The notes under the pieces were generated by a model that worked only from the letters and a program-made list of their open reading frames with translations, searched no databases and was not told the origin of the DNA. From the NCBI GenBank assembly GCA_000004985.1, contig GG738856.1: a DNA stretch of 64,000 nt; one strand, given 5' to 3'. Positions 2,842 through 52,887 of this stretch are shown in pieces. Source of the DNA: Naegleria gruberi (lineage: Eukaryota). The position numbers were made by a program, and so were the translations under genes. Each line of letters opens with the position of its first letter. Positions within the stretch are counted from its first letter, which is position 1.

Positions 2842-5800
2842 ATGTTGACTGAAAATAATAATTATCAATCATCGGCAGCAGTTAGTTCTTCCTCTTCATC
2901 ATCAAAGAGACATCAACATCATGATGATGACGACAATGATTATGATGATAAATTTAAAAAGTTTTCTGATCCGACAGAGGCTGCCAAACACACTTTCAGA
3001 TCACTTGATCGAGTTCCAGGATCATCATTCACAATCAGATCTAATAACAATAATACCACTTCTGATAATAATAACAATGAAAATAATCCAATTGATAGTG
3101 GCTTTGGACAGAATCAAAGGAAATTCCCAGAAAAACCATCAGCACACAGAACACCACTACAACAAGTGGGTGACTTTTTCAATAGTTTGATATTCAGTTT
3201 ACTCTATGTTACTGCTGACACAAAGAAGAGATTTTATAGTTTCCTTGTTGGTCTGATTACTATTGCTATTGTTGTGTTTGTTGTCAGTATATTGTACAAT
3301 TCAATTCTGAAAGCAAATTTAATCTTCTTGAAATTATCTGAGGACAATGTTGGAGATGCTGATATAATGTTTACACCAAAATTCACAAATTTAACAACTA
3401 TACCTTTTATTAACAATACCGAGATTAGTGAAAAATTAGCTAATAGTCCTTATATTACTGGCACAACCCCTCGTTGGATTATATTTGCCAATCTACAGAA
3501 TAGAGATCAACCTCAAAAGAATATTAGTGGACTTCTCTTGATTTTGGATACTGAGAGAGAAGAACAATTGGGAATTGGTAGAATATGGCCATACAGACCT
3601 CTTGGAGAAGGAGAAATTCATGTGAGAGATTCTATATTGCGAGCCATTGATGTGAAGCCAAATAGAGGGCAGAGAACTAATCTTGTAATTGATTTTGCCA
3701 GTTTGGCCAGTGCATTCTCTGGAAGTACTGAAGCCATACAGAATGGTGTGGATCCAACTCAACAAAATTTCGATCAAGCTCAATTATTGAGATCTCTTTT
3801 CATTTAAACTTAAAAGTGAAGGGTGAATCTTCTGTTGTTGATTCTATCACCTCCAATTATGCCAAATATCCAAGTGCTCTTGGTAACGTAATGATTATTG
3901 ACAGTCACTATGTAGGTCAAATAATTGAAGAGTCACTATTTGCCTCGCCCTCTACGCAGTTACTTTTGGAAATTACAGGAAATACTCAAAAAATCAAAAA
4001 CTTTTTCAAAACTTTCCCAATAGAACAGTACAGTTTAACTCTAGCAGGTCGACTGAAAGACAGATTCCCAACCTATCTCAAGAGTGATAATGAAAGAAAA
4101 CAAGCAGTTATTGGCATTACCAATGGTATGATGGATAGTATTGGAGTTGCTTATCCAGTCACTTACACTCTTCCACTTTTGAGTGCTTTAGATGGTACCA
4201 AATTTATTTCATTATTTATTGATCAAATCTTTATTGGAGTTGTTGTCATGTTAGCCATTTTGGGTATCATTTTGATTTTTGCCCTCCTTTTGGCCAATGT
4301 TGAGGAGAAAACCTATGAATATGGTATGTTGAGAGCCCTAGGTCTTCGTCAGTATTCTCTTATTCAGGTCATTTTGGCTCAATCCATGTACTTTGCCATA
4401 CCTGCCATCATTATTGCCATGGTACTTGCCTTCTTGGTAAATATTTTGGTTGAGTATGTATTACAAGTTGTTATCAGCACTCCAAGCTTGAATTTGTACT
4501 TCTTCTGGGCTGCAGTTGTAGTTCCAATTGCTCTTGGTTTTGGTATTCCTATTATTGCTAACGTTATTCCAATTAGACATGCTATGAGCAGAACTTTGAG
4601 AGATTCACTTGACATTGCCCATCAAACTTTCAATGAAACCACTGTCAAAATGATCAAACTTGAAGAATTAGGATTGGAACCATGGCAAACTGGTGTATCT
4701 ATTTTATTGGTTATTATTGGTTTTGTAGTTTACTATATGATTCCATATTCATTTATTTTCACTGATCTCCCACTCTTCTTCTTTATTTTGAATGCTATTC
4801 TATTGGGTATGCTTGTTGGATTGTGTATTATTGCTGTCGTATTAGAACCATTCTTTGAGAAGATTATATTGAATTTAATCTTGTGTGGACCTGAAAGAAA
4901 ATTGAAGACTTTAATTTCCAAGAATTTGGCTGGTCACCGTAAACGTAGTAGAAAGACCTTCCTCATGTTTACACTCTCAGTTGCCTTTATTGTTTTTGCT
5001 GGTGTTGTCTTTTCATTGCAATCAGCTAATATTCGTGCAAATGTTGAGGCTTTCCTTGGTGCAGATATTGTTGTCATTTCAACCAATTCACGTTATTCAC
5101 TTCCTAAAGACAAACTCAATGAAGCTATTGCACTCCAAAACAGTAGAAACAAAACGATAGAAGCACCAGTTAAGGGACATGCCTACCAATCATTCAGTAT
5201 TGCTAATATTCCGTTCTTTACTGGTTCTAGATTCTCCTCACTTGCCTATTTCCCTAACAGAAGAGTTGTTTATAATGCAGTGGACAGAAACTTTTTGAGT
5301 GTTGTCAAGAGCAAGTACTTCCTCTACACATACATTGATTCAAGTTTCACGTACAATATCACAGATGAGAAACCAGATGTTTTCCAAAGTTTGTACGATA
5401 ATGCAGGACAAGCTCTTGTTGATGGAGAAAAGGTTGGATTCGCACCAAGTATTGTATACAGTGGTGTAAAACTCAATTTCGAAGACAATTATACCTTAAC
5501 CTTTGATCCAGCCTCTCAATACTCACAATACATTGATATTGTAGCTTCTGAAGCTATGAGACCATCTGTTGGTATTGGAATTAAGACTCCAACCGATTTG
5601 AGATTCTCTGGCATCAATAGTAAGACAGGAACTCAAAATTATGTAGATTTTATTGGCAAGTCAAGATGCCTTGCCTATAAGGTCCCTGGTTTCTTCTATT
5701 CTTCATATGAACTTACTGCTTCTGGTTCTCCTGTTATTATTACTATGGATGCATACAAGAAAATTGCAAGATCAGTCGCTAAATCAGTTGGTCTCACTAC

Positions 5801-6377
5801 TTATAATGATGAAGTTTACTATCAAAAGCTCTTTATCAAGCTCAAAGATGAAATTACAACCTTTGAAGTACAAGACGTTTTCAATGCCTTACAAGCTTCT
5901 GTTAGTTCTGATTTCACAAGTATTCAAAATGTCAGAGATTTGGTTGGTAGTACAGAGACTGCTACACTTGTCCTTATGGCTTTCTTCAACATTGTTGCTG
6001 CTATTGCCATCATTTTGTGCTTCTTCATGTTGGCTGTTTCATTCACTGCTAACGTTAGAGATAACTCTTGGGAATTTGGTGTGTTGAGATCTATTGGTTT
6101 GTCTGTCAATGCACTCATTCGTGCCTATATTTATGAAGCTCTTTGCTTGGTCATTTCGGCCTTTATTTCTGGTACTGTGATTGGTTGTGTAATTGCCTTG
6201 ACATTAACAGCTCAGTTCAACTTGTTCTTGGAGATGCCGTTCCAATTCGATTTCCCATACTACCTCTTCTTCTCTATTCTTATCATGGCTCTCATTTGTG
6301 CCATTCTGGGTAGTTACTTGCCTGCTAGAAATTTGAGAAAGAAGGAAATTGCTCTCGTCATTCGTGGAGCTGAATAA
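2842..6377 (+). CDS. FtsX-like permease family (DUF214/MacB-like) membrane protein with two FtsX domains. ORFs 2842..3807 and 3816..6377 are joined by an apparent +/-1 frameshift near 3732-3815.
   Basis: N-terminal TM (FYSFLVGLITIAIVVFVVSILY) plus an extracellular region in ORF1. ORF2 has two FtsX 4-TM modules (GMLRALGLRQYSLIQVILAQS... and NSWEFGVLRSIGLSVNALIRAYIYEALCLV...PARNLRKKEIALVIRG). No GT...AG candidate lies between the two frames, so this is a frameshift rather than an intron. Confidence 0.75.
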
Positions 6378-17315: not shown

Positions 17316-18433
17316 TTAAATATAGAATTCATTAAGTGATGTTAATAATTTTGCTTCATCACTAATTCGATTGGCATAAACATAGAGTGATGTTAATTGT
17401 TTCATTCCACTTATGAACTTGGCTCCTTCATCACCAATTTCATTGTAACATATATCAAGTGATGTTAATTGTTTCATTTCACTTATCAATTTGGCTCCTT
17501 CATCAAGAATTATATTGTTAGAAATATTAAGTGATGTTAATTGTTTCATTCCACTGATGAATTCGGCTCCTTCATCATAAATTAGATTGTTAGAAATATC
17601 AAGTGATGTTAATTGTTTCATTTCACTTATGAATTTGGCTCCTTCAACACCCATTGGATTGCTAGAAATATCAAGTGATGTTAATTGTTTAATCTCGCTT
17701 AGATATTTGGCTCCTTTATCATCAATTCCACTCTTATAAATAGTAAGTGATGTTAATTGTTTCATTTCACTTATCAATTTGGCTCCTTCATCACTAATTT
17801 CATTCTTAGAAATATTAAGTGATGTTAATTGTTTCATTCCACTTATGAGTTTGGCTCCTTCAACACCAATTTCATTCTTAGAAATATCAAGTGATGTTAA
17901 TTGTTTCATTTCACTTATAGATTTGACTCCTTCATCATAAATTAGATTTCCAGAAATATCAAGTGATGTTAATTGTTTCATTTCACTTATTAATTTGGCT
18001 CCTTCAACACCAATTCCATTCTTAAAAATATTAAGTGATGTTAATTGTTTCATTTCACTTATTAATTTGGCTCCTTCTACACCAATTTGATTGTCAGAAA
18101 TATCAAGTGATGTCAATTGTTTAATCTCACTTATGAATTTGCCTCCTTCTACACCAATTTCATTGACACCAATACTAAGTGATGTTAATTGTTTCATTTC
18201 ACTTATGTATTTGGCTCCTTCCACACCAATTTCATTGTAATATATATAAAGTGATGTTAATTGTTTCATTTCACTTATGTATTTGGATCCTTCTACACCA
18301 ATTCGATTATTACATATATTAAGTGATGTTAATTGTTTCATTTCACTTATGGGTTTGGCTCCTTCATCACCAATTCGATTGTTAGAAATATCAAGTGATG
18401 TTAATTGTTTCATTTCACTTATGAATTTAGCTC
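17316..18433 (-). CDS. RNI-type leucine-rich-repeat protein (24-aa repeat ISEMKQLTSLDISNNRIGDEGAK). 5' partial, running into the assembly gap.
   Basis: At least 15 tandem 72-nt/24-aa LRR units. The ORF continues into the N run at 18434. Confidence 0.75.
17330..18433. repeat. tandem 72-nt coding repeat (LRR units)
   Basis: The motif agtgatgttaattgtttcat recurs with period 72 nt. Confidence 0.8.
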
Positions 18434-19088
18434 NNNNNNNNNNNNNNNNNNNNNNNNNNNNNNNNNNNNNNNNNNNNNNNNNNNNNNNNNNNNNNNNNNN
18501 NNNNNNNNNNNNNNNNNNNNNNNNNNNNNNNNNNNNNNNNNNNNNNNNNNNNNNNNNNNNNNNNNNNNNNNNNNNNNNNNNNNNNNNNNNNNNNNNNNNN
18601 NNNNNNNNNNNNNNNNNNNNNNNNNNNNNNNNNNNNNNNNNNNNNNNNNNNNNNNNNNNNNNNNNNNNNNNNNNNNNNNNNNNNNNNNNNNNNNNNNNNN
18701 NNNNNNNNNNNNNNNNNNNNNNNNNNNNNNNNNNNNNNNNNNNNNNNNNNNNNNNNNNNNNNNNNNNNNNNNNNNNNNNNNNNNNNNNNNNNNNNNNNNN
18801 NNNNNNNNNNNNNNNNNNNNNNNNNNNNNNNNNNNNNNNNNNNNNNNNNNNNNNNNNNNNNNNNNNNNNNNNNNNNNNNNNNNNNNNNNNNNNNNNNNNN
18901 NNNNNNNNNNNNNNNNNNNNNNNNNNNNNNNNNNNNNNNNNNNNNNNNNNNNNNNNNNNNNNNNNNNNNNNNNNNNNNNNNNNNNNNNNNNNNNNNNNNN
19001 NNNNNNNNNNNNNNNNNNNNNNNNNNNNNNNNNNNNNNNNNNNNNNNNNNNNNNNNNNNNNNNNNNNNNNNNNNNNNNNNNNNNNNNN
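18434..19088. other. assembly gap (655 N)
   Basis: Run of n. Confidence 1.
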
Positions 19089-19148
19089 AGGCTTTGGAAA
19101 ATAACAAGGAATTTTAGTGAAATCAAATGAAAATACAGAATTGGAGTT

Positions 19149-20486
19149 TTAACAAAAGTAGAAATTTATCAAATCTGGAAGTTTTGAAAGCAATTCCAAT
19201 GAATCATCATTCACTGGATTGTTACAAATATCCAATTGAGTTAATTGATGCATTTGAGCAAGTGATTCAGCTCCATCATTTCCAACTCTATTGTCATTTA
19301 TCAAAAGTTCAGTCAATTTGGACATTCCAATAATTAAACCCGTTCCAATATCACCAATTTCATTCTCTCCAATGTCAAGATATAATAATTGGTCCAATTT
19401 ACTTATTGACTTCATTCCCTCATCGCCAATTTCATTGGTATTGATATCTAATTTTGTGAGTTGACTCAATTTGCTTAATGACTTGGCACCTTCTCCGCTA
19501 ATTCGATTATGAGAAATGTCAAGTTCAGTCAATTGTTCCATTATTCCAATATAGTGAGCTCCTTCGTTGCCAAGTACATTGTATCGAATATTAAGTTTAG
19601 TCAATTGATACATTTCACTAATAGCTTTGGATCCATAAGAGCCAATTTCATTATGACTAATTTCTAAGGTGGTCAATTGCTTCATCTCACTAATCAACCT
19701 TGCTCCTTCATCTCCAATTTTACAAGAGCTGATATTAAGGCAAATTAAATTATTGATGTGAAAAAGTGATTTAATGCCCTCAACTCCAATGTGATTTTCA
19801 GAAATTGAAAGATTGGTCAATTTGGTCATCCCACCAATATAACTGGCACCTTCATTGCCTATAAAATTGTTACTGATGTCGAGATCAGTTAATTGAGTCA
19901 TTTCACATATTGATTTGGTTCCTCCTGCATTGATATTGTTTCTGCTAATATTTAGTTTGGTCAATTGAGTCATTTCTCTAATAATTTTTGAACCTCTTTC
20001 AAGTAATTGATTATTGCTGATATCAAGGTCGGCCAAATGAGCGAGATTGCTTATCATATTGGCTCCCTCTGCATTTACCAACCATGAACTAACATCAAGT
20101 TTAGTTAATTTTCCACACATTCGAATAAAATTGCACAACTTTACAGTATCGCTAACTAATGTACCTATTCCAATTTTCATACTCGAAAAACATTCCAAGA
20201 ATTGACTCTTTCTCATCAAGTCAAACATTTCATCATTCCAATGATCCTTGTCAATGTAGTACTGAAATTCAATTGACAGTTTGGCATGCCGTTTAATACC
20301 TGCCATCCACTGCTTGGAAATTAGTACACAACTAGAGAGTATAAATTTCCAATCTCCGTTCAAATAGTTAATTATTTCATAGCAAATGTCATCAGAGAAT
20401 ATTTGATGGCTATCGGAAGGAATTTCAATCTCATAAAACATCTGATGTTTATCAAAAGCAAAATCTTCGGCTGGTAATTGATACAT
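19149..20486 (-). CDS. F-box/LRR (RNI-type) protein
   Basis: N-terminal F-box-like IFSDDICYEIINYL...LISKQW followed by about 12 LRRs with the GxEGAK motif. ATG at 20486. Confidence 0.8.
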   Translation of the reverse strand: MYQLPAEDFAFDKHQMFYEIEIPSDSHQIFSDDICYEIINYLNGDWKFILSSCVLISKQWMAGIKRHAKLSIEFQYYIDKDHWNDEMFDLMRKSQFLECFSSMKIGIGTLVSDTVKLCNFIRMCGKLTKLDVSSWLVNAEGANMISNLAHLADLDISNNQLLERGSKIIREMTQLTKLNISRNNINAGGTKSICEMTQLTDLDISNNFIGNEGASYIGGMTKLTNLSISENHIGVEGIKSLFHINNLICLNISSCKIGDEGARLISEMKQLTTLEISHNEIGSYGSKAISEMYQLTKLNIRYNVLGNEGAHYIGIMEQLTELDISHNRISGEGAKSLSKLSQLTKLDINTNEIGDEGMKSISKLDQLLYLDIGENEIGDIGTGLIIGMSKLTELLINDNRVGNDGAESLAQMHQLTQLDICNNPVNDDSLELLSKLPDLINFYFC

Positions 20487-20530
20487 TTTTTTGAATCTCT
20501 AACAATATTTGTAAAGTAGCACAAATCATT

Positions 20531-33440: not shown

Positions 33441-35072
33441 TCAATTATTTGAGTTTTGATAAAAACGTTCTCTAAGTGCTTTGAGAATGGCTTCAGCTCC
33501 TTCATGTAGAATTTCTTTAGAAATTTCGTCTCCATTTTCCCACTTACATTTATCCAAACCAAAAAAGGAAACATTAATCAATTCACAATACTCAACTGGA
33601 ATATTCTCCAAACATGGATTTTCAGCAATATTTAACATTCTTAAATATTTGAGTTTTGACAATTCTTTTGGAAGGTATTTGACATTATTTCTATAAAGAG
33701 AAATTGAAGCCAATTCACTAATTTCGGATAATTCCATTGGAAGGGTTTCGATTTGATTTTTATCAAACCAAAGAGCTCCCATTTGTTTACAATGACTCAA
33801 TTCAGGCGGAACTTGTGTTAACTTATTATTCATGATGAATAATTCATTCAAATTAAGTAAGGAGCAAATTTCTATTGGAAATTCAGATATTTGATTATTG
33901 TTCAAGTTGAGTCGAGTAAGTTTTTTCAAAATTGATAATCCATTGACATGTGTCAGTAAGTTATTGTCAAGATTTAAACTGGATATGAATGTAAAATCCA
34001 AAGTTTGAGTCAATTCTTTTGGAATTTCCAATAATTGTAAACTTTTCAATTCAATAGTGGAACCTCCTTCATTCAAAATCTTTTCCACTTTCATTTCCAT
34101 CCAATTTCCGTCATTATTCAGACTATTATCGTAAAGATTCTCCCATTGATTATTATCTTCCTGATATCGTTCTCCTTTAAATGCTCTTCCACGATCGTGA
34201 GAGCCACGACTTTCCCAAAACCCTTTTTCATTTTCCTTTGAAAATTTGAGTCCACATAAGAATTTACATCCTTTCCAGCCAAATAGTTGAGGAATCATGA
34301 GACGAATGTAACCATGCTCTTTGGAAATGAATTCTTCATTATATTTGAGAGCTAGAAATGAATCTGGTGTGTCCACGTCCTCTCTGTGGACATTCACAAC
34401 ATAACCATCAATTCCTGTTTGAATGAGAAATTTCCAGTCTGGATCTGGTTTTAGATAATTGATAATGGATTGAAAGGAAAGACCTTCCATGTGCATGTCC
34501 ATAACACTCCATGTGGTTACACAATGTAAATCAATTGTATATTTGGATAATGGGATAGATTCAAGTAATTCTGTGAGTGTGATTGTCTTGATCGGATGAT
34601 CATCTCCAAGGATTATTTCAAGTTCCCATGAGTTAATATCCATTTCTGGATGATACCCCAAATCGAGGACAGGCCACTTTTTAACTATTTTTTGGCCTTT
34701 TGGAAGTTTACTATTATCTTCTTCATCGAAAATTTGATAGTTTCCAGTGGTTTTAAAAGTACTTTGTCTTATTCTTTCAAGCTTTTCAATGTGAGATTCG
34801 TCTAATTTTAATTGTCTTTTTGCTTCGTTTACTGTTTTGATTTCCGAAATATTCTTTTGATCAGTGATTTTCTTTGTTACTTGATTCTTGGGTGACGATA
34901 TTTCTCTAGTTCTGCAAATATAAAAAGCCACCATTGATCCAAATATTATTAATGATGAAAATAATGGATTAGATTCAACTGGCAATATTGCAATGGTAAC
35001 GAAAACAAGACAGGCAAAAAATAGAAAATCAAGAGCTTGTGTGTTCATTGTATTTTTTTGATAAAAGTTCAT
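33441..35072 (-). CDS. membrane-anchored protein combining a sulfite-oxidase-family molybdopterin (Moco) domain (YedY/MsrP-like) with C-terminal leucine-rich repeats
   Basis: N-terminal TM ALDFLFFACLVFVTIAILPV. Moco-domain motifs IDLHCVTTWS, GIDGYVVNV and FLALKYNEEFISKEHGYIRLMIPQLFGWKGCKFLCGLKFS. After that come about 9 classical LRRs (LNLDNNLLTHVNGLSILKKLTRLNLNNNQISEFP...). ATG at 35072. Confidence 0.75.
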   Translation of the reverse strand: MNFYQKNTMNTQALDFLFFACLVFVTIAILPVESNPLFSSLIIFGSMVAFYICRTREISSPKNQVTKKITDQKNISEIKTVNEAKRQLKLDESHIEKLERIRQSTFKTTGNYQIFDEEDNSKLPKGQKIVKKWPVLDLGYHPEMDINSWELEIILGDDHPIKTITLTELLESIPLSKYTIDLHCVTTWSVMDMHMEGLSFQSIINYLKPDPDWKFLIQTGIDGYVVNVHREDVDTPDSFLALKYNEEFISKEHGYIRLMIPQLFGWKGCKFLCGLKFSKENEKGFWESRGSHDRGRAFKGERYQEDNNQWENLYDNSLNNDGNWMEMKVEKILNEGGSTIELKSLQLLEIPKELTQTLDFTFISSLNLDNNLLTHVNGLSILKKLTRLNLNNNQISEFPIEICSLLNLNELFIMNNKLTQVPPELSHCKQMGALWFDKNQIETLPMELSEISELASISLYRNNVKYLPKELSKLKYLRMLNIAENPCLENIPVEYCELINVSFFGLDKCKWENGDEISKEILHEGAEAILKALRERFYQNSNN

Positions 35073-35081
35073 CAATATTTA

Positions 35082-41045: not shown

Positions 41046-41990
41046 CTAGCAAAGAATACACTTTTTATCTTTCTTTCGATGGCTAGTATGAGTTTCAAAG
41101 CTTTTTATAACTTGAACGAGTCTGTGATATCTAATTAGAATACTGAAGGCATTGGAAACTGTTTCATTGTGTGCAGCGGATGCCATGATAATGGGACAAT
41201 ACTTTAGTTTCGGATTTCTTGTGAAAATTTCATAAACATCCTTCAAGTTAAATTGATATGCTGAAGAATCAACATCAACCTTATTCACAACAATGACATA
41301 GGATTTGTACATTTTCTTCTCCTTAAAATTTGATTTTAGAACCTCCTCTAGCTCTGTAAGAGATTGTCTATCATTTATCGAACAAACTAACATGAAACAC
41401 TCTCCAAATTTATATTCCATTCCAAAAGAGAAAGAATCCTCAATAACTAATCTCGTAGGATAATCATCAACAATGGCATTCTTCCATGTAGTTTCCTCAA
41501 TAGTTGGATCTATCTTTACTCCATCAAAATAGTTCATGACATATTGAACTGTCAGAGCTGTCTTTCCAACATTTGCTATTCCACCAACGAATATTTTGAA
41601 ATCAGCTTGTCCGTAATAATTCTTATTATTTGATTCCTTTTCAAGTTGCAAACTCTTATAATTCTCCTTAAACTTGTGCATTAATTGAGCGTATCGACTT
41701 CTGTTACTCATTGTTGATGGCCATGGTATTTCTTCATCTTGTTTTGCCAATACTTCCTCTGTCCATTCCCGATGAGAGAGTCTTGCCCAACCCATCACTA
41801 AATACCTCCAATAACCATCCTGTAAATATTGATCAATTGGAGAGTCTTTCTTGAATGAGAGAGCCATCGAACAAGCTGCCTTACTTCTCATAGTTTCACC
41901 TTCCTTGTATTTAAAATTCAAAGGCTCTTGATTCAGACCACAATAATTCAAAATGATAATAATTAATTCATCGGGCAATCTGTTCGTCAT
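41046..41990 (-). CDS. F-box domain fused to a Ras-superfamily small GTPase-like domain with a degenerate G3 motif
   Basis: LPDELIIIILNYCGL F-box. G1 GGIANVGKTAL. Switch-I DPTIEETT. G3 is replaced by IEDSFSFG (no DxxGQ). G4 VNKVD. G5 ASAAH. Confidence 0.7.
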   Translation of the reverse strand: MTNRLPDELIIIILNYCGLNQEPLNFKYKEGETMRSKAACSMALSFKKDSPIDQYLQDGYWRYLVMGWARLSHREWTEEVLAKQDEEIPWPSTMSNRSRYAQLMHKFKENYKSLQLEKESNNKNYYGQADFKIFVGGIANVGKTALTVQYVMNYFDGVKIDPTIEETTWKNAIVDDYPTRLVIEDSFSFGMEYKFGECFMLVCSINDRQSLTELEEVLKSNFKEKKMYKSYVIVVNKVDVDSSAYQFNLKDVYEIFTRNPKLKYCPIIMASAAHNETVSNAFSILIRYHRLVQVIKSFETHTSHRKKDKKCILC

Positions 41991-42168: not shown

Positions 42169-43451
42169 ATGAAGAGAAGCAGGTTCGGAATATCTTCTTC
42201 ACCAACTTCACTTTCCGAAGAAGAACAAGAAGAACAAAAACACACCAATCTTGGTAATGATGATGAAGAATTTCAACTAGTAACTTTGTCTTCTCCTTCC
42301 AATGAATATGAATCAAAACAAAAGAAGGCTAAATATGATACCAATGAATTAATTAATATTACTCATGATGATTATAATTATAATAATATTACAAGAGTAA
42401 TTCTAATTGATTTGATGGAAATATTAAATACAAATCATCATCAATTAATTAATAATTCAAATAATTCACAAATGGAAGAAATTAAATTCCTCTTCAACAA
42501 ATTAAGGAGGAAAATGAATGGTGGTGATTTTGTAGAACGTGCCTTCTCAACAAACTTTCATCACTCGAGGACAATTATTGGAATGGAGAATGAAGAAGAG
42601 GAAAAGTTTACATTGTGAAAATTTGTTACAATTCGAAATTGGTATTTGTGAGTGGAACAGATGAATCAAAATTAGTGGTCTATAGTTTGGATGATTACAA
42701 ATTCATTAAAACTATTGAATTGGAAACAATGCCAACTAATTTATGTATTGAAGAATGGGATAAATATTCGAATGATATTATCATTTCTGGAAATAATACT
42801 CATGTTTACAAGTATAGTTTAGAGGAATGTATGAAATCAAAACCGAAACCATTGTGGATTTGTGATAAGATTAATTCACCAAATGGAATAATATCTGTCA
42901 GTGATAGGAATAATTCAAACGAAAATTATAGAAAAGAGACCTCTCTTCTCTATGTTTGTGATATGTTTACTGAATTGATTAGCATTGTCAAATCACAAAC
43001 AGGACAAGTCATTGGAAATATATCTCTGCTAAGTGAAATGATTAATGTATCCTGTCCATGGAGTATTGGAATGAATAATTTGGGACAATTCATAATTAGT
43101 GGTCTACAAAACTCTAGCAAACATATTATTGAAATAATTGAGAGACAATTCGATCAAAAAAAGAATCAATACGAGTGGAAATCTATTAAAGTCATTGAGA
43201 ACGAGGAAGACAAGTTAAAATATCCTTTCGGACTTGTGGTAGATAGTGTATCTTTGAATATCATTGTATGTGATAGTTTGAATCACAGATTAATGGTATT
43301 CAAACAAGATGGAACTCTGTTAAAAGTATTTGGATCGAAAGGAAGGGAAACTTTTCAATTATCAACACCTATGGGTCTCTGTATTAACAAATTGAATGGA
43401 GAATTACTCGTGGCAGATTCAGAAAATCATCGAATATTATGTTACAAATAA
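42169..43451 (+). CDS. NHL-repeat (six-bladed beta-propeller) protein. ORFs 42169..42618 and 42615..43451 are probably joined by a frameshift.
   Basis: C-terminal NHL repeats (VVDSVSLNIIVCDSLNHRLMVFKQDGTLLKVFGSKG...LLVADSENHRILCY). N-terminal acidic region. Confidence 0.6.
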
Positions 43452-44950: not shown

Positions 44951-45965
44951 TTAAGCAGTAACATTGAACAAGGCATGAGTTTCAGCCAAAATTCTGCTGT
45001 TTGGATGCTTAGAACCGCATTCACCTTCACAAGCAGCAGCAACAAATTCGTAAGTACCAACTCCCCAAGAGACTAGAATTGAAAATTAATAATTGTCAAA
45101 TATCATAAATACATACTGTTGTTGTTTGGATCATCTTGAGCTTGGATTTGGATTTGAATTTCAAAAGTACCTGGTTGGAAACCTTCAGCAAGCAATTCTC
45201 CACCAGAAATATCACCAGTGACTGGACCATTACTAATATATTTGATTAATTGTAACTGTTAATCAAAATTACTTACACTTCGAAAGCAAGTTCACCAGTA
45301 CCAGTTTGATTGTAGACTCTCAATTGAGAAACAGCAGTGAAAGTAGTACCCTTTGGAGCAGATTGTGGAACAACTCTAGTATTGAAGAATTGAGCACAAG
45401 TTGGGAGCTTGCAGTTGTGAACTGGACAGATACCAACTAATTGACAACCATAGATAGCATCCAAATCAGCCTTCTTGATCAAGTTAATGAATTCTTCAAC
45501 ACCCAAATAATCACAGACCAAGTTACAGGCAGCAATAGTGAGGGAACCAAAGTTGGACAAGTATGAGCACAAGACACCACAACTTCCTATTGTTTTTGTA
45601 TCAAAAAAGATTGTGTGAAAAGAATTGACAATTCTCAGTAAACTGTTCATGTGAAAAAACTTACCAATAACACCAGAGTTCAAGATAACGTTCAACAATT
45701 GGTTAATAGTTTGATCCAACAATTGAATACACATTGGACACAAGGAGAAACCAGCCTTTGGCAAGGTAACCTTGGCACCAGTTTGCTTGACGGAGAAATT
45801 CAACAACTTTTGAGTCAATTGTTCATCCTTCAAAATATTTTCACGGATTTCATTCTTCAATTGTTGGAAAGTAGTTGGTTGGTGATGATTACGAATAGCC
45901 ATACAGAATGGTGTAACGTAAATTGCCAAAATCATGGCAACCAAGAGGATTTGAGTAATCTTCAT
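44951..45965 (-). CDS. secreted saposin-like Cys-rich protein. Three exons: 45277..45965, 45117..45232, 44951..45072.
   Basis: Signal peptide MKITQILLVAMILAIYVTPFCMA. Saposin-type Cys spacing (CPMC...CGVLC...AACNLVC...CQLVGIC). Two 44-nt introns (GTAAGT...TTAG at 45233..45276; GTATGT...CTAG at 45073..45116), both in phase. CDS total is 927 nt. Confidence 0.6.
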
Positions 45966-46825
45966 CTTAGTGTTTTTGTTTTTTTTTTGAATCAAAATTG
46001 TTTTCCTTGCCACAATTCGCTAATCGCCCCGCCATCTCGCTGCGATTTTGCCTCTGCATTACGGTTGGCGTTGATTACGGCCAGTGTTCTGTTGGGTCAT
46101 TTTGGAATCATTGGCTTGTTCTCTTCCTTGTCTTCTTCGACAAAAGCTTTGTTGTGTTTGGTTGGAAGAAGATAGAAAGTGGTGGCACGTTCGATAAATG
46201 GAGATTTTCAGGTTAGATCTATCAACAGAAGAAGAGATGAAAGGAAGAGGATCGTATTTGAGAAGAGAGGTGGACTCTGTGAATGTATGGGTAATTCGGA
46301 GTCTTTGGAAACAATGTTGCAGCAAGGAAGAAGTTACGGAACCATTCACATGTGATTTGATTGGTGGAATATTGAAAGATGACACTTATTCCGGTCAATA
46401 TTTTGTATTCAATAAAAATAATGAATGGCGCCATTGGTTTCTACTGCTTGCCTTTACAGAAATTGCTCCATGACAAAACTCTTGTTCTGAAATATTTGGA
46501 ATTCGCTTGTGTGAATTTGAAATATTTCACATCAGTGATATCCAAGATATTTTCCATATTCAAGGTGGTTTTTAAATATCAGAAATATTTGAATTTATCC
46601 CTTTCCCGCCCTCAACAAAAAATCTTCATCCTTATTTGTGCGTTCAAGAGAAGATTCAAATATATTTGAGTTGATTTTTTTCACACAAAGAAGATGTGAA
46701 AGAGATTTTTTTTCTTCAAGTTTATTGGATTTAAGATGGAGTTTGGTTTTTTGTTTAATATTCGAAAGTGAGGAAGAAAAAGCAGGAATTTCGAATAATA
46801 GAAAAGAAATTCATCACTTTCAAGA

Positions 46826-47285
46826 ATTATTTAAAAAAATGAATTATACACCATAGCCATTCCTCCTCCAATTCCTGCAATGTTCTCTTCTGATGATTTT
46901 GTTATGAAATTCTATCCTATTTCCATGAGGAAAATGATGGAAAATTTATTCTACTGAATTGTTCGTTTATTTCCAAGCAGTGGATGAAGAAATTCGGACA
47001 GATTTCAATTCAATATTTGAAATAGATTCTCTACTTCATTGGCAAGGTGTTAATTTGCAAAAAGTTGAATGTGAAAAAATTCGGAAAGATTTCAATTAAT
47101 ATTCTAGAAAAAATCAATTTTTGGAATGTTTTGGGAAATTTGGAATTTATTTGAAAGATTTTGCAAAGTTTCATGAAATAATTAAAATGATGAAAAATTT
47201 AAAAAGTCTTTCTATTGGAAATGATTCTATTGGAGAGGAGGATTTGAAATTTATTGGAGAAATGAATCATTTAACTGAACTTGTT
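46826..47285 (+). pseudogene. truncated duplicate (about 90 percent identical) of the 5' F-box region of the F-box/LRR gene at 50264..51577
   Basis: Near-identical alignment of 46826-47283 with 50248-50700. The pseudogene copy carries ATG...TAG (a stop after 5 codons). Homology ends abruptly at 47284. Confidence 0.7.
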
Positions 47286-48260: not shown

Positions 48261-50150
48261 ATGAACAACACTAAGCGTACCCCTCGGTTTGTAAAGCCGT
48301 TAGCTTTGGTTAATAAAATTGAAGATCAAGGCTCCTCCAACAACAAGCGTTCCTTTGAAAACCCTGTAGGCGAAATGTATTCGGAGGCGACACTATTTGA
48401 TTGTGAATCAACAGACTTATTTTCATGTGTTTCATTGCCACCTAAAAGACGGTTGGTAGAATCGTCATTGCTTAATACTTTTGAAGATACAGATTCTTTT
48501 GACAGACCTATTATTGAGAAATCGTTAGAAATAGTACCTAATACCTCCATTGAAATTAAATGTAATATAGGAAACATACCATCTCTGGACATGAACAGAA
48601 CAGTCGATCTACTTTCTGATAAAACAATAACAAATGATGATACAAGTGCAAGCAACTTGAGAATAGATATAATATCAAAAATCAGTTTGGATACTGTTAT
48701 TTACCGTGATAATATGAATAATAGAAAAAATGTGTTGAATAATTACACTCAGCTCCTTCAGTTCGTTAATGATTGCCCTAATCTTAATGTTCTTGGAAAT
48801 ACGAAAGCTGCCTTTCACATTCAAGTAGAAGGGTATGCCAGAACTGGAAAGACAACTCTTTCATCAGTAGTTCTTCCTTATTTACTATCAAAATACAAAT
48901 ACAATACCTATTCGAAATATAGAACAATACTAATCAATACCAGAAATTTTGAAAGGACTTGTTTATTTGGTGATTACATTCTACAAACCTTGCAATTCGA
49001 ACTGAAGGTTCCACCACCACAATTAAAACCTTTCACACAGGCTTACTCATTTTGGCCTAATTGGTTAGCAAAACATTTAGATCCTCAAACTTTTTATTTT
49101 TTTTGCTTAGATGATATTCAATTATTGAACGAAAATGAAATGCATGAAGCAAAATGCTTTTTCAAATCAGGTTTTAATCCTGAGAATATGGTTGCCATTG
49201 TTACTGGTTCTTCACAGTCAATGTTCTTGAAGAGAATTGCTTCTGTGAGGTCGAATGGTTTTTCCTTAAATGAATGTGTTAGCAAATATGTTATTCCGAA
49301 AGAGATCACATTCAATGAAATTCAAGAAACAGTAACAGCTTTAAAATCAATTAATCAAAATGGATCCCTTACCGTTGATCATATCAAGCAATTGAAAATT
49401 GTTTTTCGAGAAATTCTTCCATCTCATCTATCAATACTTCATCATGAAAAGGAGTATTCAGTAGAAAAATTGGTTAAGGAATACCAAGGAATTTACTTGA
49501 AGGATTTTCCATTTCTGAAAAGTTATGAATTAACTGAATCTGACAAACGAATAATCAAATTTCTACTAAAGGGAGATTTTTCACATTTGGAAGGAAATCA
49601 AAGAATTGCTCCTGAGGGACTTTTTTTCTATATCGAGAAAAAAGAAGATGGCGAGTACAGATTAAGGGATCTAGTGTTGGACAAGATGTTACACTTTTGT
49701 TTCCAAATAGATCCCACATTCGGTAAGGTTATAAGAAAGGATAATCTATCTGAAACTTTTTATTATGATTTCTTTCTTTTACTTCCTGTCTCAGAATTTG
49801 GCAAAACACTTTCTAAAAATATATTCTTTCTTAATAGGTTGACTTATCCATCCTTCACTCCAAATACTAAGCAAATCAGTAGAATGCGTAATGCTTTACT
49901 AAAAGAAGCAAAATATCATTTCACAATTGACAAAACATTCCATTCAATTATTATTGGAGTGAGAAATCATGTGCTAAACAACATTCCCAATTCATCAGTT
50001 GTTTGCAACTTGTTTTTGACTCATTGGTTCAATAATTCCATTTCACAATTTCATTCATTTCTGGAAGACCTCATAGAAGTCAATTCAATCAACCTTAAAG
50101 CTTGTAAAGCACAAAAAAACAAATCAAAAAAAAATAGGAAATGGAAATGA
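48261..50150 (+). CDS. novel P-loop NTPase (STAND/AAA+-like; Walker A, Walker B, sensor-1 arrangement)
   Basis: Walker A HIQVEGYARTGKTTL. Walker B FYFFCLDDIQLL. Sensor-1-like MVAIVTGSSQSMF. N-terminal basic region; Lys-rich C-terminal tail. Confidence 0.65.
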   Translation: MNNTKRTPRFVKPLALVNKIEDQGSSNNKRSFENPVGEMYSEATLFDCESTDLFSCVSLPPKRRLVESSLLNTFEDTDSFDRPIIEKSLEIVPNTSIEIKCNIGNIPSLDMNRTVDLLSDKTITNDDTSASNLRIDIISKISLDTVIYRDNMNNRKNVLNNYTQLLQFVNDCPNLNVLGNTKAAFHIQVEGYARTGKTTLSSVVLPYLLSKYKYNTYSKYRTILINTRNFERTCLFGDYILQTLQFELKVPPPQLKPFTQAYSFWPNWLAKHLDPQTFYFFCLDDIQLLNENEMHEAKCFFKSGFNPENMVAIVTGSSQSMFLKRIASVRSNGFSLNECVSKYVIPKEITFNEIQETVTALKSINQNGSLTVDHIKQLKIVFREILPSHLSILHHEKEYSVEKLVKEYQGIYLKDFPFLKSYELTESDKRIIKFLLKGDFSHLEGNQRIAPEGLFFYIEKKEDGEYRLRDLVLDKMLHFCFQIDPTFGKVIRKDNLSETFYYDFFLLLPVSEFGKTLSKNIFFLNRLTYPSFTPNTKQISRMRNALLKEAKYHFTIDKTFHSIIIGVRNHVLNNIPNSSVVCNLFLTHWFNNSISQFHSFLEDLIEVNSINLKACKAQKNKSKKNRKWK

Positions 50151-50263
50151 TAATATTCAGGTAGATGAGAATGCGATGGGCTATTGTTTCAGTATGGTTC
50201 AATAAATGACATTTCAACTTGTTGATACCTTTCGAATATTCATTTTAGAAATTATTTAAAAAA

Positions 50264-51577
50264 AATAATCAAATACGAATCACCATTCGCCTCCAATTCC
50301 ACCAATTCCACAATATTCTCTGATGATATTTGTTATGAAATTCTATCCTATTTCCATGAGGAAAATGATGGAAAATTTATTCTACTAAATTGTTCGTTAA
50401 TTTGCAAGCAGTGGATGATGAGTGTGAAGAAATTCGGAAAGATTTCAATTAATATTAGAAATAGACTTTCGGATTCATTGATAGAAACAATCAAGAGAAA
50501 TCAATTTTTGGACTGTTTTGTGAAATTTGGAATTTATTCGAAAGATTTTGTAAAGTTTCATGAAATAATTACAATGATGAAGAATTTAAAAAGTCTTTGT
50601 ATTGGAAATGATTCTATTGGAGAGGAGGATTTAAAATTTATTGGAGAAATGAATCATTTAACTGAACTTGAATTGTGTGAATGTTTGACCGGAGATAAAG
50701 ATATTAGACCAATTAGTAGAATGTCTCAATTGACTAGATTAAATATTAGTAAGAATGTAAAGTATCATTTAAGCGATATCATTGAATTGAAGCAATTAAA
50801 AATACTAGAAATTGGAGAAAATTTCATAGGAGATGAACAAGTTGAACTACTTTCCAATCAATTGAAACAATTGACCATTTTACGAATTAATAATAACTTG
50901 ATTCATTCGCAAGGGGCTGAACATTTGAGTAAATCGGATCAATTGACTGAATTAGATTTAAGTGGAAATGCTTTAAATTATACAATTGGCTATGAAATTG
51001 CAAAAATTGAACAATTGAAAACTCTTCACCTTAGCAAACTTTCAATATATCAAATGGGATCAAGACGTCCAGTTGGATCAAGATTGAGTTCACAATTTGG
51101 ACAATTATTTCAATTGACCAGTCTTAGTATAAGTAATACTAATATTGGAGATGAGGGAGCCAAAGAAATTAGTAATTTAACACAATTGACTGAACTATAT
51201 GTACATGGAGCTGGAATTGGAAATACAGGAGCCAGATCATTAAGTGTTTTACATCAATTGGCCAAACTAGATATCAGTACTAATCAAATTGGAGATGAGG
51301 GAGTTAGATTATTCAAACAATTATCAAAATTAACAGAACTTGTTGTGTTTAATAATAGAATAGGAGATGTTGGAGCACAACTAATAAGTGAAATTCCTCA
51401 ATTGACCAATCTTGATGTTAATAACAATCAAATTGGAAATGAAGGGGCAAAATCAATGGAAATCAAATTGATGATCAAGGAGCTAAATTATTATGTGAAA
51501 TGAATCAAAGAAAAATTGAACTTTATGGAAATAATATTAGTAATGATTTCAATTATTTAATTGAATTATTGAGCTGA
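50264..51577 (+). CDS. F-box/LRR protein. It has no in-frame ATG upstream of the F-box (ATA sits at the position where the pseudogene copy has ATG). A frameshift near 51460 lies before the last LRRs.
   Basis: IFSDDICYEILSYF...LICKQWM F-box-like, then LRRs. The +1 frame continues GNQIDDQGAKLLCEMNQRKIELYGNNI...* to 51577. Confidence 0.6.
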
Positions 51578-51717: not shown

Positions 51718-52743
51718 TCATTGAATGAAACATTTTCCAATGGATGATGATTCCAAATCAATATCTGAATCTGGATTTCTAAATGCTATTGATTTGATAA
51801 GTAGTTCTAAAATTTTATCAAAATCATATCCTCTCACTGTTGATGATTCCATATAAGAAATTGCTCCAATTTTCTTTGCAAAATCAATGCCGTCCTTTGG
51901 CGAGACAGTTAGTGTATTTCTATTTCTATAATTCCTCAAATCAGTCATACATCCCATTACTACATATGGAGTTTGAGGAGAGAAGTGAGAAATTAAAGGT
52001 AAAATCTCCTTTTCAATTGTAATAAAATCAGGACACTGATCAATGGTTGGAATATTGATTTGTTGTTGATCATCAAAATTATGAAATGTGCTAAAACACA
52101 AACAATACAGATCCACATCCAATAATGCATTATCTACTTCTGAATTGTTATCTTCACCGGGAAATCTGCTATATTCACATAATTTAACAGTTGCAATTTT
52201 AAGATTATTCAATTTTGATGAGTATTGAAATTGATATTCAGAATTGGAATCCCACGTGTTATGAATTAATGGAATAGTCAACAAATTCTTTTGAATTATA
52301 CTTGATTTCCCACAAGATTTTGATCCAATAAACGTCACTTTAAAAATTGGCAATTTTCTTCTAATTTTCTTCATATTCAACACATCCTGATCCGAAACAT
52401 TCTTTCTAATAAACTCCTCCGATCTAAAACATGATAAATTCGATGAAAATTTCATTTCTGAAATTAAATATTCAAATTTCTTCCTTTCTGAACTAAAATT
52501 TTTCTTCCCAACTTGATCGCACAATAATGAATATTTCATCATGGTTAATAAATTAATTTTCCTCTCATTCATCAATTGTAAATTCTGCTCCGAAAGAAAT
52601 CTTTCATTGACACATTGTGTTAGGACAAAATTCGAATTAATTATTCGGAAGGACAAGATTTCTTCAAAGGGAAGAAAATTCAAAATAGAAAAAATAATTT
52701 CAGAGGGAAGAGATGAAAGGTGGCTTGTTAGGTTTTGTTGCAT
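51718..52743 (-). CDS. F-box domain fused to a Rho/Ras-like small GTPase-like domain (degenerate switch II)
   Basis: LPSEIIFSILNFLPFEEIL F-box. G1 FIGSKSCGKSSI. VVMGCMTDLRN resembles Rho LVGTKLDLRD. The C-terminal AISYMESSTVRGYDFDKILELLIKS is Rho-like. Confidence 0.7.
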   Translation of the reverse strand: MQQNLTSHLSSLPSEIIFSILNFLPFEEILSFRIINSNFVLTQCVNERFLSEQNLQLMNERKINLLTMMKYSLLCDQVGKKNFSSERKKFEYLISEMKFSSNLSCFRSEEFIRKNVSDQDVLNMKKIRRKLPIFKVTFIGSKSCGKSSIIQKNLLTIPLIHNTWDSNSEYQFQYSSKLNNLKIATVKLCEYSRFPGEDNNSEVDNALLDVDLYCLCFSTFHNFDDQQQINIPTIDQCPDFITIEKEILPLISHFSPQTPYVVMGCMTDLRNYRNRNTLTVSPKDGIDFAKKIGAISYMESSTVRGYDFDKILELLIKSIAFRNPDSDIDLESSSIGKCFIQ

Positions 52744-52814: not shown

Positions 52815-52887
52815 GAGACTGTAGCTCAGATGGGAGAGTATTCGTTAACCCAACGAATGGTCTTAGGTTCAAATCCTAACTGTTTCT
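52815..52887 (+). tRNA. tRNA-like gene with a Val(AAC)-like body but an aberrant anticodon loop (TAACCCA, A at position 33)
   Basis: Acceptor GAGACTG/CTGTTTC (one U-U mismatch), TAGCTCAGATGGGAGAGT D-arm, anticodon stem TTCGT/ACGAA, T-arm TTAGGTTCAAATCCTAA, T6 terminator. The loop lacks U33. Confidence 0.55.

Follow-up and report, generated by a model that had tools for sequence, protein, structure and literature searches.

The stretch analysed here, referred to as the window, is 64,000 nucleotides of Naegleria gruberi DNA (contig GG738856.1, assembly GCA_000004985.1). The element in question lies at positions 48,261 to 51,577, where a gene for a P-loop ATPase is followed on the same strand by a frame encoding an F-box and leucine-rich repeats (LRRs). 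The window has a G+C content of 33%, is dense in genes and tRNA genes and is nuclear DNA of Naegleria gruberi NEG-M. Its open reading frames (ORFs) at 74-1039 and 41049-41990 (minus strand) are exact matches of the N. gruberi NEG-M proteins EFC47008.1 and EFC47152.1, respectively, while other ORFs carry eukaryotic domains, namely RCC1, REJ/EGF, RGS and F-box. A first-pass annotation had read the ATPase gene and its neighbour as the split halves of a receptor resembling the nucleotide-binding, leucine-rich repeat (NLR) receptors of innate immunity. This was not borne out, and it is likely that the ATPase is a stand-alone gene of a heterolobosean family and that the downstream F-box/LRR gene is separate from it. 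The features on which this reading rests are as follows.

48261..50150, plus strand: ATPase gene, intact, 629 codons, coding for an AAA+-like P-loop ATPase restricted to Heterolobosea (ORF, with relatives at E 9.5e-21 to 3.7e-4)
48831..48857, plus strand: Walker A motif GYARTGKTT, residues 191-199 (G196, K197 and T198 kept in every relative covering the region)
49098..49121, plus strand: Walker B strand FFCLDDIQ, residues 280-287 (D284, I286 and Q287 invariant in the family)
49200..49214, plus strand: sensor-1-like strand end VTGSS, residues 314-318 (T315, G316 and S317 invariant)
49251..50036, plus strand: C-terminal conserved half, mostly helical (family alignment and AlphaFold model; the fold is a prediction)
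50201..50206, plus strand: AATAAA hexamer, a possible poly(A) signal, 51 nt past the ATPase stop and 59 nt ahead of the former start of the LRR gene
50265..51503, plus strand: F-box/RNI-type LRR frame, probable pseudogene (ATG changed to ATA at the start; the F-box precedes the first in-frame ATG, at 50415)
51452..51577, plus strand: final LRR unit and C-terminus in a shifted frame (repeat spacing 35 nt against 72 nt)
46825..47283, plus strand: partial and degenerate copy, matching the LRR gene over its first ~460 nt (ATG at 46839 kept, stop after five codons, several indels)

The ATPase gene and its family

At the base composition of the window a stop codon is expected about every 14 codons, and 629 open codons would arise by chance with a probability of ~8e-21; judged on its sequence, the ORF at 48261..50150 is a genuine gene. 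The 629-residue protein and its GYARTGKTT, FFCLDDIQ and VTGSS motifs stand as first described, all three having been located in the ORF and found to be conserved in the family. In an AlphaFold model of the ATPase, VTGSS falls at the end of a beta strand. Family motifs are also present further along, these being SNGF (331-334), IYxxD (411-415) and WFNN (589-592), together with YRLRD (466-470), which follows a conserved beta-hairpin (…ENGxYxLRD…) in the C-terminal half. Further positions invariant in the family alignment are N332-G333, P346, I411-Y412, D415, R469-D470 and N569. The window ATPase retains 31 of the 52 positions agreed among the other lineages, with all Walker A, Walker B and sensor-1 residues included. 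Most of the differences at these 52 positions are conservative, no catalytic residues are lost and the protein looks functional.

The protein begins with a tail of ~130 non-conserved, probably disordered residues. After this N-terminal tail comes a nucleotide-binding domain of the AAA+ type, ORC/Cdc6-like, and then a conserved, mostly helical C-terminal half of ~280 residues, in which a lid and a beta-hairpin of the winged-helix kind are probably present and which runs out into a basic tail.

An exhaustive HMMER search over 1.84 billion protein cluster representatives found four related clusters and nothing else, all of them heterolobosean or probably so. These are N. lovaniensis XP_044554674 (E 9.5e-21, 28% identity), a protein from a metagenome contig (E 6.9e-17), Willaertia magna KAL9653250 (E 3.4e-5) and a cluster made up of N. 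fowleri XP_044565977 and N. lovaniensis XP_044555736 (E 3.7e-4). The six relatives span 427-765 aa. Word-index homologue searches, with the ATPase protein and with the family alignment, were empty among the 8000 candidates listed, and NCBIfam and PADLOC models gave noise only. Pfam gave nothing significant for the C-terminal halves taken alone or for the N-terminal part of the N. fowleri protein; in the Willaertia protein, a weak HTH_60 match (E 0.023) coincides with the hairpin region. No papers were found in a literature search for the locus tags of the relatives, and papers on amoebal NB-ARC-TPR and NBS-LRR proteins treat canonical STAND proteins and not this family. By its sequence relationships, the ATPase is a member of a small AAA+ family of undescribed role which has so far been seen only in Heterolobosea (Naegleria, Willaertia). 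No self-hit for the ATPase was found in a protein library holding other N. gruberi proteins, which suggests that the N. gruberi annotation lacks this gene.

As to the P-loop assignment, the protein has a Walker A motif of the form GxxxxGK[TS], a Walker B motif of the form hhhhD[DE] and, at sensor-1, a polar residue, all three conserved in the family; the strands are predicted at the right places and the predicted model has the AAA+ alpha/beta fold. Matches to named families are few, and the observation in the first-pass annotation that the protein belongs to no family that could be named still holds. The best Pfam match of the window ATPase, and its sole one, is to AAA_14 and falls below threshold (E 0.007, 16.8 bits vs a cut-off of 27), while among PDB sequences no AAA+ protein was matched, whether the query was the protein alone or the profile. 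AAA_14 was also matched among the relatives, of which one (P0002) passes AAA_22 (31.4 bits vs a cut-off of 27) and another (P0001) lies just below the cut-off for AAA_16 (32.1 vs 32.6 bits). The window ATPase is tied to these two proteins at E 1e-17 to 1e-20.

The AlphaFold model built from the six-sequence alignment has a mean predicted local distance difference test score (pLDDT) of 45, its confident part being the nucleotide-binding domain (50-82) and the C-terminal half scoring <50; the single-sequence model has a pLDDT of 32. Foldseek with the alignment-based model returned PCH-2, the archaeal Walker ATPase PAB2304, Cdc6/ORC, TnsC, RFC and MuB at E 1e-4 to 1e-3. Its top structural matches include ORC/Cdc6, BrxC and MalT, with NLRs lower, the differences being small and the model weak. 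The ATPase domain is accordingly described here as a predicted ORC/Cdc6-like AAA+ domain in the broad sense, a STAND assignment not being preferred, with margins too small to decide.

Like ORC/Cdc6 and the Arch_ATPase-type proteins (PAB2304, PDB 2qen; SSO1545, PDB 2fna), the ATPase has a Walker A motif, a Walker B motif of the form hhhhDD/DE and a polar sensor-1 ending the next strand. As in these proteins, a helical region follows the nucleotide-binding domain, probably with a winged-helix-like hairpin. Unlike them, the family matches no ORC/Cdc6 or Arch_ATPase model at the sequence level and is restricted to Heterolobosea and not universal. It also differs from ORC/Cdc6 in having no conserved Arg at the Box VII position, where it has SNGF instead, and in its longer C-terminal half of ~280 residues. 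A housekeeping ORC/Cdc6 or RFC protein, the possibility that the first-pass annotation had set against its own interpretation, is ruled out by the lack of any Pfam, NCBIfam or PDB sequence match and by the Heterolobosea-only distribution, the resemblance being at the level of the fold only.

With STAND proteins (AAA_16/MalT-like, NB-ARC, NACHT) and NLRs the ATPase has its P-loop class and motif order in common, one relative is near the AAA_16 cut-off, and the conserved region of ~475 residues is the size of a nucleotide-binding oligomerisation module. However, a repeat sensor domain (LRR, TPR, WD40) of the STAND kind was detected by Pfam in none of the seven family members. NACHT was matched neither by the window ATPase nor by the relatives, no STAND-specific profile matched the window ATPase, and NB-ARC was matched at noise level in one relative only (E 0.0089, 15.7 bits vs a cut-off of 23.5). 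STAND proteins usually carry an Arg at sensor-1, which together with GxP and an MHD-like His makes up their specific motifs. The sensor-1 of this family is an invariant Thr, which would fit classical AAA+ proteins better than STAND, and ORC/Cdc6 proteins outrank STAND proteins in the structural comparison. Of the STAND/AAA+ motif order that had been proposed, the part that stands is that the gene codes for a true P-loop ATPase in which sensor-1 comes after Walker A and then Walker B, whereas the STAND label is only loosely right for an AAA+ protein that is ORC/Cdc6-like.

The downstream F-box/LRR frame and the question of pairing

The spacer from the ATPase stop (50150) to the ATA at 50265 is 114 nt, in keeping with the ~110 nt first given for the distance to a co-oriented F-box/LRR frame. 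The claim that this frame lacks its own ATG, having ATA where the copy at 46839 has ATG, was likewise confirmed. Both codons lie six codons ahead of a common CCATTC, and this equal distance shows that the ATG/ATA correspondence holds. Near the other end of the frame, the repeat spacing of 35 instead of 72 nt indicates a 37-nt frameshifting deletion near 51455.

LRR_6 is clearly recognised in the frame (78 bits vs a cut-off of 23.4). The F-box-like match is sub-threshold (17 vs 24.3 bits), but the region lines up with the F-box in intact paralogues, and one of these exceeds the F-box cut-off. The window has three intact paralogues, each with a Met of its own ahead of the common IFSDDxCxEI F-box. 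The best database relative is N. gruberi NAEGRDRAFT_58930, with 36% identity over 98% of the length, and no self-hit was found among the annotated N. gruberi proteins; this ORF too appears to be absent from the published N. gruberi annotation. Like the Naegleria F-box/RNI-type LRR family to which NAEGRDRAFT_58930 belongs, the frame has the IFSDDxCxEI F-box and 24-residue LRR_6 repeats. Unlike that family, it has no ATG, carries the 37-nt deletion and is without an annotated self-hit. As its start codon is lost and a frameshifting deletion has occurred, the frame is probably a pseudogene; at best, it would be a remnant that begins at 50415 and has no F-box.

Several features of the locus would suit a split NLR-like receptor, in which a STAND ATPase and a downstream LRR sensor work as two polypeptides or are joined by read-through or splicing. 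The genes are co-oriented, lie 114 nt apart and share a reading phase, no in-frame ATG precedes the F-box of the LRR frame, and one relative of the ATPase has the weak NB-ARC match (E 0.0089). However, reading on from the ATPase into the LRR frame would meet four stop codons, and read-through joining them is thereby ruled out. For splicing, all GT..AG pairs joining the ATPase to the LRR frame in phase were enumerated. None of these has a donor like GTATGT, with which the intron of the N. lovaniensis relative begins. TTTTAG at 50248 is the sole good acceptor and has GTTTTT as its donor, and the other pairs delete the conserved C-terminus or cut the F-box. Splicing is thus also ruled out, every option having a poor donor or the loss of conserved sequence or of the F-box, and neither of the two ways of joining that had been put forward is upheld.

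Comparison with relatives speaks to the same question from both sides. All ATPase relatives end 20-40 residues past the W[FC]N[NG] motif, the Willaertia and metagenome relatives fitting this end point once their second exons are read, and the window ATPase ends likewise. The common end point indicates that nothing is missing from the C-terminus of the window ATPase. Repeats (LRR, TPR, WD40) were found in none of the six relatives, and among 37 relatives of the LRR protein none has an NTPase domain, LRR domains being the only ones present. Homologues fused as NTPase-LRR proteins, a check proposed in the first-pass annotation, were therefore not encountered on either side.

A co-oriented downstream LRR gene was found, by gene content and motif scan, at none of the five independent loci of the relatives. 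The gene downstream is KNTC1-like in one case (L001), without a Pfam match in another (L004), cut by the contig end and not compared with Pfam in a third (L005) and large and without a Pfam match in a fourth (L006), while short ORFs follow at the remaining locus (L002/L003). LRR genes near the relatives occur only upstream and on the opposite strand, in L001 and L002/L003. In the 64-kb window, LRR-bearing ORFs number seven, roughly one gene in six, and the chance of having a co-oriented LRR gene as the downstream neighbour is ~1 in 10. Given these seven ORFs, the adjacency of the ATPase and the LRR gene is no more than would be expected by chance.

The AATAAA at 50201 is the sole such hexamer in the spacer, where ~0.1-0.2 would be expected by chance, and it lends weak support to separate termination of the ATPase gene. 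The LRR gene itself, with its F-box, its intact stand-alone paralogues and its two disabling lesions, is a poor candidate for half of a receptor. The ATPase and the LRR gene do not appear to form a split immune receptor, and the NLR-like interpretation, largely refuted already by the comparison with relatives, is not supported by the sequences and is considered highly improbable.

Local rearrangement, relatives' loci and possible roles

The ATPase gene has the partial copy of the 5′ end of the LRR gene on one side and the full copy on the other. The duplicated piece amounts to ~460 nt only and its flanks do not match, which points to duplication and deletion inside an LRR gene cluster and not to a functional unit.

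The same arrangement, with the ATPase gene flanked by two copies of the LRR 5′ end, might be expected of a mobile element or virus remnant, the ATPase then being an accessory protein of the TniB/TnsC/MuB/IstB type or a giant-virus gene lodged between two LRR-gene copies. The patchy distribution of the family, the place of the gene outside the annotation, a weak TniB match among the relatives (E 0.039) and the TnsC and MuB structural matches are in line with such an origin. It is nevertheless very unlikely. Neither in the window nor at the loci of the relatives does a transposase, integrase or capsid gene lie beside the ATPase. Terminal repeats were not found, the only nearby inverted repeat being one of 38 nt with a 71% match, and the window holds a single copy of the ATPase gene, with no second copy of the gene or of its flanks. 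Viral contigs yielded no relative, and the viral structure library gave generic AAA+ matches only. Furthermore, the Naegleria, Willaertia and metagenome relatives have spliceosomal-type introns or frame breaks at differing places.

The loci of the relatives show no synteny with the window beyond LRR repeats, except for an NHL-repeat gene near the N. fowleri copy. The NHL-repeat ORF of the window (42615-43448, plus strand), ~5 kb upstream of the ATPase gene, resembles one at 3848-4936 of L005, ~3 kb upstream of the N. fowleri relative. This resemblance could be a trace of synteny or could merely reflect a multi-copy family.

The Willaertia relative (L004, Willaertia magna JBEGDK010000055.1, 4401-16876) lies between two RNA-dependent RNA polymerase (RdRP) genes and adjoins a SocA_Panacea-domain gene and an ADP-ribosylglycohydrolase gene. 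This setting bears on a possible role in conflict or defence, in which the gene, evolving fast and coding for an ORC/STAND-like ATPase without repeats, would sense or restrict viruses or mobile DNA in heterolobosean amoebae independently of the LRR gene. The family is confined to one lineage and very divergent, with 28% identity between copies of two Naegleria species; its copy number is variable and its positions are non-syntenic. MalT and the BREX-system protein BrxC rank high among the structural matches, and the N. gruberi copy lies within a rearranged stretch holding pseudogene fragments. However, PADLOC models were matched at noise level only, and Pfam recognised no effector domain in the window ATPase, the relatives or the C-terminal halves. 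Only a single locus shows the defence-like context and the structural matches are generic to AAA+ proteins, so that a defence gene of this kind is judged unlikely. The wider proposal of a new Heterolobosea-specific family of repeat-less ORC/STAND-like ATPases engaged in genome defence or host-parasite conflict, again independent of the LRR gene, is put forward because of the fast evolution, the non-syntenic positions and the Willaertia copy among RdRP, Panacea and ADP-ribosylglycohydrolase genes; it is regarded as a rather doubtful one.

The reading preferred here therefore remains that of a stand-alone heterolobosean ATPase gene with a separate F-box/LRR gene downstream. On this reading the ATPase would act alone, as a switch between ATP-bound and ADP-bound states or as an assembly factor, its catalytic residues being in place, and the conserved helical C-terminal half would bind its target. 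The downstream LRR gene would be a decaying paralogue of the abundant stand-alone F-box/LRR family, and the neighbourhood of the two a coincidence in a gene-dense, LRR-rich and locally rearranged region.

A number of points weigh against the stand-alone reading. The comparison of the relatives' neighbourhoods covers only five independent loci. Independent transcription is argued from sequence only, namely from an A-rich start context, which is conserved with the partial copy, and from one AATAAA hexamer. The absence of the gene from the annotation could mean that it is silent or recently inactivated. For paralogues or fused versions, the part of the N. gruberi genome covered was the 64-kb window and the annotated proteome. 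Lastly, the model is poor outside the nucleotide-binding domain (mean pLDDT 45 overall), so that the fold of the C-terminal half is a tentative prediction and the ATPase may be either ORC-like or STAND-like.

Other features of the window and significance

Several other features of the window are worth mentioning. Two neighbouring long LRR_6 ORFs occupy 17319-20498 (minus strand), a stretch which holds the lowest G+C content of the window (21% at 18-20 kb) and in which long ORFs overlap on both strands. Unusual domain combinations are found in single ORFs, with an N-terminal F-box and a Ras-like GTPase domain at 51721-52743 (minus strand) and a molybdopterin oxidoreductase domain with LRRs at 33444-35075 (minus strand). 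Two FtsX-like permease domains, a module of bacterial type, are found in an ORF of 853 aa at 3816-6374 (plus strand), which this eukaryote may have acquired laterally. A Cys-rich ORF at 45273-46013 (minus strand) has no Pfam match and possesses a hydrophobic N-terminal stretch which by eye resembles a signal peptide.

Seven tRNA genes are present in the 64 kb, within 14507-58546. tRNA-Thr(AGT) occurs twice (28976 and 33310), as does tRNA-Ile(AAT) (14507 and 53269). The ARAGORN calls further include, at 52815, a tRNA-Gly(ACC), whose anticodon is regarded as unusual.

A split NLR in an excavate amoeba, if true, would bear on the origin of nucleotide-binding/LRR immune receptors in eukaryotes; as set out above, it is not supported. 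What remains is more modest, namely one gene and one pseudogene which are apparently missing from the N. gruberi annotation. The gene belongs to a small, lineage-restricted AAA+ family, and this family could be of interest if its patchy, fast-evolving pattern does reflect a function in defence.

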